NCBI RefSeq assembly: GCF_044647545.1
Contig: NZ_CP172818.1
Strand: one strand, 5' to 3'
DNA from: Escherichia coli
GTDB taxonomy: Bacteria; Pseudomonadota; Gammaproteobacteria; Enterobacterales; Enterobacteriaceae
Length of the DNA: 64,000 nucleotides
Shown: positions 50,712 through 56,089 of the stretch, in pieces
Numbering within the stretch: the first letter of the stretch is position 1
Layout: the number at the start of each line of letters is the position of its first letter
Program-made: the position numbers and the translations under genes
The notes under the pieces: generated by a model
What the model was told of the DNA's origin: nothing
The model's input: only the letters and a program-made list of their open reading frames with translations
Database searches by the model: none

Positions 50712-52064
50712 GTGTTTATTGGTTTTGATTACGGTACAGCAAACTGTTCAGTGGCGGTCATGCGCGACGGTAAGCCGCAATTACTGAAAATGGAAAACGA
50801 CAGCACGCTGCTGCCTTCAATGCTTTGCGCGCCAACGCGTGAAGCGGTAAGCGAATGGCTGTACCGCTATCATGATGTTCCGGCAGACGACGATGAAACG
50901 CAGGCGCTGCTGCGTCGGGCGATTCGTTATAACCGCGAAGAAGATATCGATGTTACGGCGAAAAGCGTGCAGTTCGGTCTTTCCTCACTGGCACAGTACA
51001 TTGATGATCCAGAAGAAGTGTGGTTTGTGAAATCACCAAAATCGTTCCTCGGTGCCAGCGGCTTAAAACCGCAGCAGGTAGCGCTGTTTGAGGATCTGGT
51101 CTGCGCAATGATGTTGCACATTCGCCAGCAGGCACAGGCGCAATTGCCAGAAGCGATTACCCAGGCGGTGATTGGTCGCCCGATCAACTTCCAGGGGCTG
51201 GGCGGCGATGAAGCAAACGCCCAGGCACAAGGGATTCTGGAGCGCGCAGCGAAGCGTGCCGGGTTTAAGGACGTGGTATTCCAGTACGAGCCGGTGGCGG
51301 CTGGGCTGGATTACGAAGCCACCTTGCAGGAAGAAAAACGGGTGCTGGTGGTGGATATTGGTGGTGGTACGACTGACTGTTCTTTACTGCTAATGGGGCC
51401 ACAGTGGCGTTCGCGCCTCGATCGTGAAGCCAGCCTGCTGGGTCACAGTGGTTGCCGTATTGGCGGTAACGATCTGGATATCGCACTGGCGTTTAAAAAC
51501 CTGATGCCGTTACTGGGCATGGGTGGCGAAACCGAAAAAGGCATCGCCCTGCCGATTCTGCCGTGGTGGAATGCGGTTGCCATCAACGACGTCCCTGCGC
51601 AAAGTGATTTCTACAGTAGTGCCAATGGTCGTCTGCTTAACGATCTGGTACGCGATGCCCGCGAACCGGAAAAAGTGGCCCTGTTACAGAAAGTCTGGCG
51701 TCAGCGTTTAAGCTATCGCCTGGTGCGCAGCGCGGAAGAGAGCAAAATCGCCCTTTCCAGCGCAGCGGAAACCCGCGCATCGCTGCCGTTTATCAGCGAT
51801 GAACTGGCAACGCTGATTAGCCAACAGGGGCTGGAAAACGCCCTCAGTCAGCCGCTGGCGCGAATTCTGGAACAGGTGCAACTGGCGCTGGATAACGCCC
51901 AGGAAAAACCGGATGTCATCTATCTGACTGGTGGTAGCGCCCGATCGCCGCTGATTAAAAAAGCGCTGGCAGAACAGTTGCCGGGCATTCCGATTGCAGG
52001 CGGCGATGACTTTGGCTCCGTCACCGCCGGGCTGGCACGCTGGGCGGAAGTGGTATTTCGTTAA
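50712..52064 (+). CDS. yegD: Hsp70-family (actin-like ATPase) protein YegD, 450 aa, GTG start
   Basis: ORF 50649-52064; start placed at GTG 50712 (FIGFDYGTANCSVAV) to match known length; Hsp70 ATPase motifs (DIGGGTTD). Confidence 0.85.
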   Translation: MFIGFDYGTANCSVAVMRDGKPQLLKMENDSTLLPSMLCAPTREAVSEWLYRYHDVPADDDETQALLRRAIRYNREEDIDVTAKSVQFGLSSLAQYIDDPEEVWFVKSPKSFLGASGLKPQQVALFEDLVCAMMLHIRQQAQAQLPEAITQAVIGRPINFQGLGGDEANAQAQGILERAAKRAGFKDVVFQYEPVAAGLDYEATLQEEKRVLVVDIGGGTTDCSLLLMGPQWRSRLDREASLLGHSGCRIGGNDLDIALAFKNLMPLLGMGGETEKGIALPILPWWNAVAINDVPAQSDFYSSANGRLLNDLVRDAREPEKVALLQKVWRQRLSYRLVRSAEESKIALSSAAETRASLPFISDELATLISQQGLENALSQPLARILEQVQLALDNAQEKPDVIYLTGGSARSPLIKKALAEQLPGIPIAGGDDFGSVTAGLARWAEVVFR

Positions 52065-52073
52065 TTGAAAAAT

Positions 52074-52117
52074 GGCTCAGCAGCGGCTTAAATCAGCCTG
52101 CGCCTGAGCCAGTTTTT
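52074..52117 (+). terminator. Candidate yegD terminator embedded in the 3' end of convergent yegI
   Basis: Stem ggctcag/ctgagcc (52074-52110) followed by agtttttc; yegD and yegI stops are only 12 bp apart. Confidence 0.4.
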
Positions 52118-54017
52118 CTGCCGCCTGACGTAACGGTTCCATCAACGGCATGGTCCGTGCTGGAGCTTGAAGGCGGAATCGCTGCAACTCTGTCGCGCCG
52201 ACAGTCAACGTCGATTCCAGCCGATGTCGTTTGGCGGCCATTTTAGTCAGTACCGCTTGTCTGTCTGCAGGCGTTACCGCTTCGTTCGGCCTGAAAACAA
52301 AACGGCGTTCGCAACTCGCTTTCCAGTCGATAACCGCCTGGGTCAGATGATCACCAAAACCTTTTACTTGCTTAACGCTCCGTCGGGTAACGTCTGCCGC
52401 CGTTTCAATACCAAAGGACCGTAACGCCGCTTTACGCGCAGGGCCAACGCCGGGAATAGAGGCAACATCAATAAAAAATCCCTCCAGAAACTTCTGCTTC
52501 TGCCGTTCCCTTGCGGTGTCCTGAAGTGCTGCCAGATCGCGCTTTTCTTCTTCCGGTAACCCAAGAATTTCGTCCTTCATTTTTTCGAGCATCGTCCGTT
52601 TGGCGATAAAACCTTCCAGCCCGCCCAACTGTTGGATCTGGCTGACTAAATGGTCATAGTCCATTTTTGCGCGATTAAAAGCCTCTCTTCGTTGCTGGAT
52701 TTCTGCTTTGTACGCTTTGCTTGTCAGGCTGCCAATAATCCAGATAGCCGACAGCACAGGAACCAAAATAATATAACGTGGTTCTGTCTGAAGGCCGCAA
52801 AGCAACAGCGATAACGCTGACAGTGCGATCTCAATCAGAATGATGTATTCACGCCTTAACAGGCCTAAAGGAAGCGGCCTGCCAGTCGGTTGGAAATGAT
52901 CGGGTAATGGCAGTTGCAATGCTGGCGGTGCTACTGACGCCATCACCATCGCCCAGACTTTCGCCAGCACAAAATCACCGCTGGTGGTAATGACCTCTTC
53001 GCCGAGATCAATAAAATAGATAACGCCTTGATTATCCAGAGCACACCACGGGCAGTCAGCCAAATGACCGGGATAAACATGCATTGCCGAAACGGTACAT
53101 TTCTTTAACTGTTGGCGTAGTAAATCAAGTGCCGCTACCCACGCTTTTGCCGTCGGACGCCCGGTTGCCACGCCACTTTCCGTGAATGCCTGCTGAAACA
53201 TGGCTTCAACATCGCCCGGTAACATCGACAGCGGAATAGATCGTGGCGGCGGTTTTAAACCACGTCGCTGATTATCTGACGCGTAGGCATAACGGAAATG
53301 GGCAATATCCGTCTCCAGCGCATTACCCGCATCAGAGATAAGCGGTACACCGGAATAAGGATGCCGACCACCAAACAAGACGTGAAAAATCAGCAACGCA
53401 AGGCCAAAATTATCGTGATTCGCGGTGCGTTCAAAGCCAACAAATGACGACAAGGTTTGCAGCTCTGGCGACGTAAAATGCGACACGCCCACTTCGCATA
53501 AATGCAGCGTTCCATTGGCGTTAATCTGAAAGGAGTCGCTATCAATCAACACCACTTTGCTGTCACGGCCTACCATAAAGCTGTTCTGGTTTACGTCACC
53601 CACGACGTGCCCGTGCTCGTGAATCGTAGCAAAAGATGAAGCAATATTGCGCGCAACATAGAGTAGAAAATCCCACGCACAATGAGGGTAACGTTGACGA
53701 CGATGTGCCGGGCTATAGATCATATGAATCGGTTCTTTACCAGAAACTTTTGGCATCATAAAACCGATAACCTTTCCGCCTCGTCCACCGTGAAGCGTTG
53801 CCTGCGGCCAGGCGACATAATTCAACAATTGCGCGTCAGCTGTCGCAGCCATAAAGGCAAGTTTGTCCTGTTTTAAGGCGGGTGGCGGCGTGTGATAAAT
53901 CTTGGCGACGCTATCGACAAACTCCTCGATATCATAAACCGCACCTTCGCCGCCTTTGCCCAGTTCACGGCCAGGCGTAACGCACTCACCAGTAGCAGTA
54001 TATAAAGTGGGTTTCAT
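52077..54017 (-). CDS. yegI: Hanks-type Ser/Thr protein kinase-like protein YegI (kinase-like N-domain, two predicted TM helices, C-terminal helix-hairpin-helix-like motif)
   Basis: ORF 52077-54053; start placed at [11 protein letters not shown] (Met13), alternative start at 54053; Gly-rich loop GKGGEGAVYD; HhH-like PGVGPARKAALRSFG. Confidence 0.8.
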   Translation of the reverse strand: MKPTLYTATGECVTPGRELGKGGEGAVYDIEEFVDSVAKIYHTPPPALKQDKLAFMAATADAQLLNYVAWPQATLHGGRGGKVIGFMMPKVSGKEPIHMIYSPAHRRQRYPHCAWDFLLYVARNIASSFATIHEHGHVVGDVNQNSFMVGRDSKVVLIDSDSFQINANGTLHLCEVGVSHFTSPELQTLSSFVGFERTANHDNFGLALLIFHVLFGGRHPYSGVPLISDAGNALETDIAHFRYAYASDNQRRGLKPPPRSIPLSMLPGDVEAMFQQAFTESGVATGRPTAKAWVAALDLLRQQLKKCTVSAMHVYPGHLADCPWCALDNQGVIYFIDLGEEVITTSGDFVLAKVWAMVMASVAPPALQLPLPDHFQPTGRPLPLGLLRREYIILIEIALSALSLLLCGLQTEPRYIILVPVLSAIWIIGSLTSKAYKAEIQQRREAFNRAKMDYDHLVSQIQQLGGLEGFIAKRTMLEKMKDEILGLPEEEKRDLAALQDTARERQKQKFLEGFFIDVASIPGVGPARKAALRSFGIETAADVTRRSVKQVKGFGDHLTQAVIDWKASCERRFVFRPNEAVTPADRQAVLTKMAAKRHRLESTLTVGATELQRFRLQAPARTMPLMEPLRQAAEKLAQAQADLSRC

Positions 54018-54774
54018 GGTACCACAGCGCCAGTGCCAACGTTTTATCATCATCGGTACGCTCGTTTACCGCCGGGCTGGACAAAAACTGCTTTAACAAT
54101 TCAGGTAATAAATCGAGTTGTTCCTGCGTTGCTGACGCCAGTCCATTGAAAAACGGGGTAAAGAAAGGCACATGCGGAGAATTATCCAGCATATTTAACG
54201 CCAGTCGCTGAATACCATCCGTAAATGCTGCAACTTTATGCGCACGCTCAGTACTGGTGTAAGTTTCCAGTCTGGAAACAGCATCGTCATCGGTAATGAA
54301 GTGCGTCATATTGGCATATTCCCCCACCATCGGCGTGAGCGGCAGTTGCAAACCGTGACCCAAATCTACCACCACGCCGCCATCGCCAATCTGCATAATC
54401 AAGGTGCCATTAGCTGATGAAATCAATCCCAAAAACGTGCAGGCAAAATCGCGAACCGCTAATTCTTTGGCTTCCGCCTCGGCAAAAAGTCGCTGACGAA
54501 TGGTCAGCACAATGTCCGTTGCGAGGACATCATTAAGCCCCAATTCCCCGCCCTGCACTTTTTGCGACATATAAGCCATCGCTTCATTGACGGCGAGCAT
54601 CGCACCTTCGCCACCCTGCGAGACGCTGCCTGCGCCATCAGCGACAAATACCGACAATAATGGCTGCTGGTCTTCTAACCAGGCAACCTGCATCTGGCAG
54701 GCATCCTGGCAAGACAAGTCAGCGCTGATGTGCGACGTTCCAACGGTTGATGCATAGACCAGACGCCAGCTCAC
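53986..54774 (-). CDS. pphC: PP2C-family Ser/Thr phosphatase PphC (YegK)
   Basis: 262-aa ORF; recognised as YegK; 3' end overlaps the yegI start region. Confidence 0.8.
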
Positions 54775-55430
54775 ACTGACGTCCAGCCTTTTGGCGCTTC
54801 CAGCACAACTTCCGTTCCCGGCGTGGAGCGGGAAACCGAACGCAGCGAACTGGATAACCAGCTAAACAGTTCACGGAATTGTAATCCCTGCAGTGGCAAA
54901 GGCTGACGAACGCTGATTTGTGCCAAAGTCTTCATATCCGCCCCCTGAACACCGATGGAAAAGAAGGCAAACTTCTTATCTTCTTCCCCCTGAAACACTT
55001 TGTTGGCGGCAGCCTGCCACTCATCGGTTGGAGCGCCATCGGTGATCAGGAAAATCCACGGGCGATAATAGGAAATACCATTGGCGCGATACTCACGTTT
55101 GCGCTCCTCAACCATATCCAGGGCTTTGGTAATGGCAGCGCCCATTGGTGTATCGCCCTGGGCAAACAGGATGGGCGGGAAAAAATTAGCGGCGCTGGTA
55201 AAGGGTTGTTCCACATGCACCGGGCCGAACGTCACAATACCGAGTTCCACTCTTTTTAAGGCCAGCGAATCGGCAAGCAGCTCATCGCGAAAGGTAACCA
55301 ATCCGGCGTTAAGTTCATTAATAGGTCTACCGTTCATAGAACCAGAAACATCCAGCAGCAAAATGCAGGGACAACGTGGTTCCGGGTTACTGGCAAAATC
55401 GCTGGTGGCAAACGTGATTTGTTCGCTCAT
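54771..55430 (-). CDS. yegL: von Willebrand factor A (vWA) domain protein YegL
   Basis: 219-aa ORF; MIDAS-like motif DVSGSM; overlaps pphC start (ATGA). Confidence 0.85.
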
Positions 55431-55611
55431 AAGAAATCCTTTCTTAGAGAATTATTGAGGTCCGGTATCATACCGATTGCAATAATGAAATAAGAGCAAA
55501 CGAAGAAACTTTCAGAATTAGGCCCGGCGGCGCAGAAAATTTTGCTATTCGCCTCGCAAGAACGGAGAGCCGTCGATTGACACTAAGGGCGGAGTGACAT
55601 AATTTCAGGAG

Positions 55612-55760
55612 TGAGGGTTAGGGAGAGGTTTCCCCCCTCCCCCTGGTGTTCTTAGTAAGCCTGGAAGCTAATCACTAAGAGTATCACCAGTATGATGACG
55701 TGCTTCATCATAACCCTTTCCTTATTAAAAGCCCTCTTCTCCGGGAGAGGGTTTCCCGTT
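55612..55760 (+). ncRNA. sibA: SibA antisense sRNA (type I antitoxin of ibsA); boundaries approximate
   Basis: Plus-strand promoter TTGACA 55577-55582 and -10 near 55598-55605; terminator hairpin ccctct/agaggg plus T-run at 55731-55760; fully overlaps ibsA on the opposite strand. Confidence 0.55.
55652..55711 (-). CDS. ibsA: Type I toxin IbsA, 19-aa hydrophobic peptide
   Basis: Minus-strand ORF translates to MMKHVIILVILLVISFQAY. Confidence 0.8.
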   Translation of the reverse strand: MMKHVIILVILLVISFQAY

Positions 55761-55947
55761 TCAGCGTCCCGCTGAAATCGTCGGCTTACCTCCTTTCGCC
55801 CTGAATGCAGTCTATCGCTAACGCGTGAACAAAATAGTTTCCCCTGTGATTATTGCGTAACGTCTCGCAAAGAATATTTGCTCGCAGGATCGCAGACTAC
55901 AAAGCCTGCGGATTGACAATCTGATTGTGAAGGCATACTTTCAGGAG

Positions 55948-56089
55948 TGAGGGTAGAGCGGGGTTTCCCCCGCCCTGGTAGTCTTAGTATGCTGGCCAGC
56001 TAATCACTAAGAGCACCACGATGATGATCCACTTCATCATGACCCTTTCCTTATTTAAGGCCCCTTCCTCGGGAGGGGCTTTCCCGTTT
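55948..56089 (+). ncRNA. sibB: SibB antisense sRNA (type I antitoxin of ibsB); boundaries approximate
   Basis: Second copy of the sib repeat: promoter TTGACA 55913-55918, terminator hairpin plus T-run about 56058-56089. Confidence 0.55.
55984..56040 (-). CDS. ibsB: Type I toxin IbsB, 18-aa hydrophobic peptide
   Basis: Minus-strand ORF translates to MMKWIIIVVLLVISWPAY. Confidence 0.8.
   Translation of the reverse strand: MMKWIIIVVLLVISWPAY

Follow-up and report, generated by a model that had tools for sequence, protein, structure and literature searches.

Some bacterial and archaeal genomes encode a compact phosphorylation cassette known as the TerY-P triad. As described, the triad joins a TerY-like vWA protein and a PP2C phosphatase to a Ser/Thr kinase whose C terminus carries a zinc ribbon (Anantharaman, Iyer, and Aravind 2012, as quoted in PMC11090510 and PMC4978471), and PMC11090510 quotes the hypothesis that it is a “metal-sensing phosphorylation-dependent switch.” The triad is found in the tellurite-resistance (ter) clusters of plasmids; as OB-fold variants that the relevant passages of PMC11090510 and PMC7699616, after Gao 2020, present as validated stand-alone anti-phage systems; and in CoCoNuT Type II/III-A (McrBC-like) systems, where a kinase with a zinc ribbon accompanies restriction-type genes and the triad is proposed to be an add-on signaling cassette (PMC11090510). 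Here, we compare with these systems the yegL-pphC-yegI block (YegLKI) of Escherichia coli, which lies in a 64,000-nt stretch of contig NZ_CP172818.1 (hereafter “the window”). YegLKI very probably belongs to the TerY-P family. We also favor, by a modest degree, the broader statement that it is a self-contained, horizontally spread TerY-P phospho-switch with a role in conflict or defense.

The block itself is already known, and PphC (YegK) and YegI were characterized biochemically in 2018 and 2020. PphC is an active, Mn2+-dependent PP2C phosphatase that dephosphorylates YegI in vitro, and the enzymes are active as both B and K-12 alleles (bioRxiv 10.1101/303594). YegI crosses the inner membrane twice and has both termini in the cytoplasm, as established by PhoA-LacZ topology; its motifs are non-canonical (VGD and DSD, not HRD and DFG), and despite them it autophosphorylates on Ser in vitro (bioRxiv 10.1101/819920). 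In pairing a Hanks kinase with a co-operonic PP2C that reverses it, YegI/PphC resembles PknB/PstP, PrkC/PrpC, and Stp1/Stk1, and activation-loop autophosphorylation is common to YegI and these classical eukaryote-like Ser/Thr kinases. However, the classical kinases have a single transmembrane helix, extracellular PASTA-type sensors, and no vWA partner, whereas YegI has no extracytoplasmic domain, carries the VGD/DSD motifs, and escapes the Pfam Pkinase model. Kinase-based abortive-infection proteins such as PD-T4-6 and staphylococcal Stk2 share the idea of a kinase fired by infection, but each of them consists of one gene, with no vWA or PP2C partner; PD-T4-6 models match the YegI kinase core weakly (E=3.9e-5), at the level expected of a generic kinase fold.

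The plasmid ter clusters provide the closest comparison. Among annotated plasmid proteins, those closest to YegL are TerY and TerY-C of tellurite-resistance clusters; against TerY1 of the IncHI2 ter cluster, YegL shows 31% identity (E=5e-26). An intact Klebsiella plasmid ter cluster has the order TerY1-TerX-TerY2-TerY3-PP2C-kinase, and its triad has the same components in the same order as YegLKI, with homology for all three proteins. A YegI profile aligns with the ter-cluster kinase at an hhalign probability of 98.8% (E=8.7e-17, 327 columns), across both the kinase domain and the zinc ribbon, with CPWC of YegI opposite CPYC; PphC matches the ter-cluster PP2C at E=2e-5. YegLKI has every architectural feature by which TerY-P is defined: a vWA protein with a MIDAS, a PP2C phosphatase, a kinase with a zinc ribbon, and a co-oriented cassette. 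The assignment is not new in kind, since a JGI protein name among the YegI relatives already records this architecture. The COG database, too, already labels YegL “vWA domain of TerY type.”

There are also clear differences from the described triads. The ter-cluster triad sits in a large cluster with extra TerY paralogues and TerD-family genes, whereas YegLKI is minimal and stands alone. The ter-cluster PP2C, at 577 amino acids (aa), has a long N-terminal extension, unlike PphC. No counterpart of the hairpin and helix-hairpin-helix (HhH) tail of YegI was seen in the 499-aa ter-cluster kinase, in a comparison limited to the kinase domain and zinc ribbon. Compared by description, the Gao TerY-P system is likewise a stand-alone set of vWA, PP2C, and kinase with a C-terminal nucleic-acid-binding module, in the passages of PMC11090510 and PMC7699616 that cover it; its kinase ends in an OB fold, whereas YegI ends in a membrane hairpin, a coiled coil, and a probable (HhH)2 module. 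The CoCoNuT triad lies within a larger operon (helicase, HEPN, McrBC-like), whereas the YegI-type triad has no conserved partner. A separate observation concerns the mcr-1 plasmid p100R (IncHI2; L092, 10061-14259), in which the PP2C of the ter triad is cut to a 236-aa N-terminal fragment that matches residues 1-267 of the intact 577-aa protein (E=2e-24). PAP2, ISApl1, and mcr-1 stand there in place of the triad kinase, and the mcr-1 cassette apparently landed in the triad.

Database models of defense and of protein families contribute little to the assignment. PADLOC-DB 2.0 returned no match for YegL or PphC and weak PD-T4-6/MkoA kinase matches for YegI, and the TerY and PP2C of the ter cluster, included as a control, were also missed. 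We considered this silence as evidence against TerY-P membership and rejected it as uninformative, because the archetypal ter triad goes unrecognized as well; PADLOC-DB apparently lacks a model for this class. A scan of the three proteins with NCBIfam gave weak partial matches alone, to cobaltochelatase vWA, Stp1, and a lanthionine-synthetase kinase domain.

The vWA and PP2C folds proposed in the first-pass annotation of this DNA are upheld by Pfam. YegL matches VWA (2.2e-9) and VWA_2 (4.2e-7), and residues 11-220 of PphC match PP2C_2 (7.4e-51). The MIDAS of YegL (D27-x-S29-x-S31, T94, and D131) is conserved across 75 orthologues, as is a Ser-rich tail, W191-L-S193-x-S195-x4-S200-x-S202. Four Ser/Thr positions of this tail (S193, S195, S200, and S202) are conserved, the first two also in TerY1, and they are candidate phospho-acceptor sites.

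YegI is less easily recognized. The Pfam Pkinase model does not match the E. coli protein even at E≤10, and a sequence search of the PDB gave nothing significant (NleH1 kinase at E 0.03, the HhH of RadA 1pzn at E 0.5, and coiled-coil noise). However, the predicted structure supports the kinase-like domain named in the first-pass annotation. An AlphaFold2 model built on 47 homologues has a predicted local distance difference test score (pLDDT) of 91.9, and the first 300 residues match PknB, CaMKII, BRAF, and others in the PDB with a Foldseek probability of 1.00 and template-modeling scores, relative to the target, of 0.64-0.70. Residues G22, E24, K39, D141, N143, D159, D161, S162, E185, and D202 are invariant among the 47 homologues. 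Because Pkinase recognizes 17 of 20 more distant homologues at E≤0.001, YegI is better described as a divergent Hanks kinase than as a non-member. Directly after the kinase domain, C307, H313, C322, and C325 are invariant in two independent alignments and form a predicted zinc ribbon. Two hydrophobic segments follow (~aa 389-409 and ~aa 413-435), in agreement with the two transmembrane helices predicted earlier, and the hydrophobic stretch is kept in 46 of the 47 homologues.

The C-terminal region of YegI probably contains a (HhH)2 module. The PGVGPARKAALRSFG motif, on which an HhH-like unit had been proposed in the first-pass annotation, is present as claimed. The lone Pfam match of YegI is HHH_5 (7.6e-4), and two nearly invariant G-h-G (G-[IVF]-G) hairpins lie in this region. 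Long helices (aa 415-511 and 583-645) lie on either side of the putative HhH; an AlphaFold2 model of residues 466-646 (pLDDT 93.6) likewise places long helices around a small unit with the two hairpins, for which the best Foldseek matches are the N-terminal (HhH)2 domains of Rad51/Dmc1, at a weak E of 0.5-2. Pfam, the hairpins, the RadA sequence match, and the likeness to Rad51/Dmc1 converge on the earlier proposal, with scores that are borderline.

The three genes travel together. We sampled 80 genome loci that encode a YegI relative and scored linkage, with hidden Markov models built from YegL and PphC orthologues, at the 73 that have >1.5 kb of sequence upstream; the other seven are truncated contigs. 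The order vWA, PP2C, kinase, with the genes adjacent and on one strand, was found at 73/73 informative loci, and in every Pfam-annotated locus each gene of the triad overlaps the next or nearly touches it. The first-pass annotation had described such a trio as a recurrent arrangement; it is indeed both recurrent and a named class. Full-length YegI orthologues with 56-62% identity occur in Klebsiella, Piscinibacter, Chromobacterium, and many metagenomes. A sensitive search found 3,168 cluster representatives at E≤1e-30, and a survey of one genome per species yielded at least 572 stretches that code for a YegI relative. The hosts include Proteobacteria, Firmicutes, Actinobacteria, Acidobacteria, Chlorobi, Planctomycetes, Cyanobacteria, and methanogenic archaea (Methanoregula). 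The cassette is not at this locus in close relatives of E. coli, and Klebsiella spallanzanii carries it elsewhere in the genome. It is near-absent from viral contigs, with three weak or proviral matches among 2.9 million, which indicates that it is not phage-borne.

The genes that flank the cassette are wholly different from locus to locus, and clustering of the flanking open reading frames (ORFs) of the 80 loci revealed no conserved fourth gene. The recurrent flank clusters that we considered as partners are generic paralogues (ABC ATPases, histidine kinases, response regulators, and CoA ligases), and a Competibacteraceae cluster considered as a universal partner reflects clade-specific synteny. 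The Hsp70-like gene yegD, which the first-pass annotation had pointed out as a neighbor, is also set aside: no Hsp70-like gene is annotated beside the triad in the Pfam-annotated non-Escherichia loci, so linkage of yegD to the triad is rejected as specific to Escherichia. Two clade-restricted arrangements were noted in passing. In some betaproteobacterial and metagenome loci (L003 5719-6474; L010/L011 5700-6501; L009 6075-6284), a conserved basic protein of 69-70 aa, whose 84-87% identity is above that of the triad, is encoded directly upstream of the vWA gene and usually followed by a secreted-type SNase nuclease. Together they may form an accessory module; a search for both found neither at the E. 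coli, Klebsiella, and Chromobacterium loci. In 14 loci (L042, L050, L051, L060, L062, L063, L066, L070, L073, L075, L084, and L088-L090), mostly from Competibacteraceae/Contendobacter metagenome-assembled genomes, a gene of ~212 aa with weak TetR-like similarity lies ~50 nt downstream of the kinase gene on the same strand, a clade-specific four-gene arrangement.

Within E. coli, the locus is kept in 5,416 of 5,426 complete genomes, as judged with a 3.7-kb query. The main variation is an extra gene, yegJ, which the first-pass annotation had suspected in other strains. It is missing from the window and present in 1,924/5,426 genomes (35%), where it sits, in the opposite orientation, between pphC and yegI. 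This presence/absence polymorphism has been described previously (bioRxiv 10.1101/303594; bioRxiv 10.1101/819920; PMC13232886). YegJ is an RNase E-binding protein whose overexpression induces yegD (PMC13232886). For one pair of E. coli strains, the ratio of nonsynonymous to synonymous substitution rates (dN/dS) is 0.18 for yegI, 0.17 for pphC, and 0.04 for yegL, with neighbors at 0.05-0.15; yegL, yegD, and mdtA fall at 0.04-0.06, versus 0.17-0.18 for yegI and pphC. This indicates that the block is under purifying selection, relaxed for yegI and pphC. Between the E. coli strains L001 and L002, again a single pair, the YegI and PphC proteins are ~96% identical, the same as the DNA (~96%), while YegL is 99.5% and YegD 98.4% identical. 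One example of disruption was seen: an IS5-family (ISKpn26) transposase is annotated inside the yegI-pphC-yegJ region of NZ_CP101210.1.

Genes near the cassette in other genomes suggest a possible role in defense. Defense or restriction genes lie within ~8 kb of the triad in seven of the nine Pfam-annotated non-Escherichia loci, a raw count without a background rate. Seven types of flank were recorded: BrxR, JetB, a SLFN-type helicase, and a ScoMcrA-like gene; AbiH with a KAP NTPase; GmrSD with type I restriction–modification (RM); type I RM with Mrr; Mrr 28 nt downstream; GmrSD, HsdR, and Abi_C; and AbiJ. In a second sample of genome loci, Gabija GajA and GajB stand directly upstream of the triad in Pseudomonas alcaligenes, the lone unambiguous case there. 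The association with defense genes is thus frequent and not universal. Overproduction of YegL or YegI raises DNA damage, which places both among the “DNA damage-up” proteins (bioRxiv 10.1101/354589), and overexpression of YegI slows growth (PMC6116040). The literature yielded no report of phage resistance conferred by YegLKI, and papers that mention YegI make no link to TerY-P or phage defense in their titles, abstracts, and the passages concerned.

Several observations weigh against a defense role. In the second sample, PADLOC matches are present among the nearest neighbors of ~6 of 20 loci, of which 1-3 are convincing, and several triad loci, that of E. coli included, lie amid housekeeping genes. 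The locus belongs to the core genome of nearly all E. coli, which is unusual for defense systems. E. coli B strains are classical permissive hosts of T phages; they carry the operon intact all the same, so the native, poorly expressed locus does not block T phages. The intact operon of B strains is both reported (bioRxiv 10.1101/303594) and found in the genome search. Robust expression of the operon was undetectable to the laboratory that characterized it (bioRxiv 10.1101/303594, 10.1101/819920), and the system appears to be cryptic in E. coli, with very low expression. Lastly, the support for the HhH module, which would connect YegI to nucleic acid, is statistically weak (Pfam 7.6e-4, Foldseek E ~1). 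We therefore hold the defense or conflict role itself only tentatively, at somewhat less than even chances; combined with the far firmer family assignment, it leaves the joint statement slightly favored.

A possible mechanism can be outlined from these parts. PphC would keep YegI silent and free of phosphate. The HhH/coiled-coil tail might read a DNA-related cue on the cytoplasmic side of the membrane (phage, foreign, or damaged DNA), leading to dimerization and autophosphorylation of YegI. Active YegI would then phosphorylate YegL and/or other cellular or invader proteins; the Ser-rich tail of YegL could dock into a MIDAS metal site, and the result would be to arrest growth or to interfere with the invader. 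A bolder version, which we regard as speculative and unlikely, casts YegLKI as a cryptic foreign-DNA sensor anchored in the membrane, and as the founding member of a very large TerY-P defense subclass marked by the transmembrane and HhH segments. There, the (HhH)2 tail of YegI would detect DNA reaching the inner membrane, PphC would set the activation threshold, and phosphorylation of the YegL Ser tail would switch the MIDAS to engage a target, aborting infection or plasmid establishment; the insertion of yegJ in the K-12 lineage would have uncoupled the switch.

The points raised against defense are in part what a housekeeping function would lead one to expect. YegI and PphC might regulate endogenous E. 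coli proteins, with YegL as an adaptor and without taking part in conflicts with phages or mobile elements, in response to, for example, stationary phase, DNA-damage stress, or envelope stress. Core-genome status (5,416/5,426 genomes), ordinary flanks in E. coli and at loci such as L007, L080, L083, and L087, no more than weak expression of yegI in stationary phase (bioRxiv 10.1101/819920), the many E. coli phosphosites without a known kinase (PMC8463566), the DNA-damage phenotype of overproduction, and the adjoining alkA are all consistent with this. We nonetheless consider it rather unlikely, since the cassette moves as a unit across unrelated contexts and domains of life, which is untypical of a host-wired regulator, is missing at this locus in close relatives, with the K. 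spallanzanii copy at a different locus, and frequently has restriction, Abi, or Gabija genes as neighbors. Low expression also invites the thought that YegLKI is a decaying remnant, acquired once by an ancestor of Escherichia and now silent, drifting, and without current function. Expression is barely detectable (bioRxiv 10.1101/303594, 10.1101/819920; PMC13232886), yegJ separates pphC from yegI in 1,924/5,426 genomes, the YegI and PphC proteins evolve 3-4 times faster than the neighbors, one genome has the ISKpn26 insertion, and the window itself has a frameshift at the end of pphC (see below). However, a dN/dS of 0.17-0.18 in the strain pair still means purifying selection, the ORFs are intact and their enzymes active in B and K-12 alleles, >99% of genomes keep the locus, and YegL is 99.5% conserved, which makes decay improbable.

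The kinship with ter clusters suggests a different input, in which the MIDAS of YegL senses a metal or a metal-dependent ligand and the kinase and phosphatase relay the signal, as in a tellurite-type stress response. YegL has its nearest annotated relatives among the TerY proteins of tellurite-resistance clusters, its MIDAS is conserved, PphC and YegI favor Mn2+ (bioRxiv 10.1101/303594, 10.1101/819920), and the metal-sensing hypothesis for TerY-P, as worded in the relevant part of PMC11090510, points the same way. Against it, no TerD, TerC, TerB, or other ter genes were noted beside the YegI-type triad in the Pfam-annotated loci, and the flank clustering of the 80 genome loci gave no conserved neighbor; a MIDAS is a generic protein-ligand site, and the HhH, zinc ribbon, and hairpin suggest nucleic acid and membrane. 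A metal or tellurite sensor thus seems very improbable. A horizontally spread TerY-P switch with a conflict role is the reading that we retain, with the reservations given above.

The genes of the block are tightly packed, with zero intergenic space (Table 1). ORFs and RefSeq annotation agree on three co-oriented minus-strand genes at the coordinates first assigned to them, and RefSeq annotates the same genes in the record that matches the window at 100.0% save for one extra base; the 3.7-kb query from this region matches E. coli strain FDAARGOS_497 at 100.0%. The gene junctions required correction. The overlap of the yegL stop and pphC start, given as ATGA in the first-pass annotation, reads GTGA, with GTG as the start codon of pphC. 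The overlap of at least 32 nt between pphC and yegI noted there does exist in the window, at 32 nt, but it is the product of a 1-bp deletion; in the RefSeq record the overlap is 4 nt and PphC has 253 aa, and the usual junction is a 4-nt ATGA overlap (bioRxiv 10.1101/819920). Base-by-base comparison places the missing base at ~54021/54022, where the window has CATGGTACCAC and the otherwise identical NZ_CP033850.1 has CATGGTAACCAC. The deletion puts the last two codons of pphC out of frame and shifts the end of PphC from ...LWLP* (253 aa) to the 262-aa form, past the canonical stop at 54014-54016, which overlaps the yegI ATG; the PP2C domain (residues 11-220) is unaffected. A 61-nt probe across the site had no identical match in the 5,426 complete E. 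coli genomes. The extra base is present in all 3,468 genomes with a contiguous junction (probe identity 98.4%, one gap), and the other genomes gave half-matches. The unusually long overlap therefore traces to one missing base, a gap that no other genome shows, and probably reflects either a mutation private to this genome or an error of sequencing or assembly.

Table 1. Features of the yegL-pphC-yegI block, in positions of the window
Feature	Position	Strand	Description
yegL	54771-55430	-	ORF, 219 aa; cytoplasmic TerY-type vWA protein
pphC (yegK)	53986-54774	-	ORF, 262 aa in window (RefSeq PphC, 253 aa); PP2C Ser/Thr phosphatase
1-bp deletion site	54021-54022	.	One A of plus-strand AA (TT in the pphC reading strand)
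yegI	52077-54017	-	ORF, 646 aa; RefSeq “protein kinase YegI”; inner-membrane Ser/Thr kinase
YegI kinase domain, ~aa 1-300	53118-54017	-	Divergent Hanks fold, predicted by AlphaFold2, Foldseek, and alignment
YegI zinc-ribbon-like C-x5-H-x8-C-P-W-C	53043-53099	-	Directly after kinase; C307, H313, C322, C325
YegI hydrophobic hairpin, ~aa 389-435	52713-52853	-	Two predicted transmembrane helices, hydropathy peaks
YegI probable double HhH, ~aa 515-571	52305-52475	-	IPGVGPARKAALRSFGIETAADV + VKGFGDHLTQAVIDW

In the yegI frame, a longer ORF extends to 54053. The stop codon of yegD is at 52064, which agrees with the 12 bp between the convergent yegD and yegI stops reported in the first-pass annotation, and yegD-yegI is listed as a convergent excludon (PMC12288877). 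RefSeq places dgcE, alkA, and yegD on one side, with the block on the opposite strand; ibsA, a second ibs toxin gene, and then mdtABC lie on the other flank. Independent transcription of the genes through internal promoters or terminators was considered and is unsupported, as counts of such elements in the block are no higher than in shuffled sequence. GC content is barely below that of the flanks and thus bears no clear mark of recent transfer. Directly upstream of yegL, two Sib antitoxin RNAs lie on the plus strand at 55577-55726 and 55913-56055 (Rfam SIB_RNA, 147 and 137 bits), and the ibs toxin ORFs lie opposite them on the minus strand at ~55654-55713 and ~55986-56042. ibsA/ibs are small type I toxin genes of variable copy number, with four ibs genes in another E. 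coli strain (L002). NZ_CP141089.1, a 4.9-Mb E. coli record in a plasmid collection with yegL at 99.5% identity, looks like a misfiled chromosome, and plasmid matches at ≥95% identity are accordingly disregarded for this locus.

The first-pass annotation had considered this block the most plausible place in the window for under-described biology. This holds for its trigger, its substrates, and the role of YegL; it does not hold for PphC and YegI, each of which has a biochemical paper, or for the class, which has a name. New here are the explicit link to TerY-P, the finding that the three genes are obligately linked in bacteria and archaea alike, and a hypothesis, open to testing, for an orphan E. 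coli kinase system. All three genes are obligate members of the cassette, whose range extends from Methanoregula to Paenibacillus and which often has restriction, Abi, or Gabija genes nearby. Very few Ser/Thr kinase/phosphatase pairs are known in E. coli, and YegI/PphC is one of them. Its strains, which differ in yegJ (present in 35% of genomes), offer naturally occurring “coupled” and “uncoupled” alleles, and placement within TerY-P turns a vague question about an orphan kinase into specific experiments in the best genetic model.

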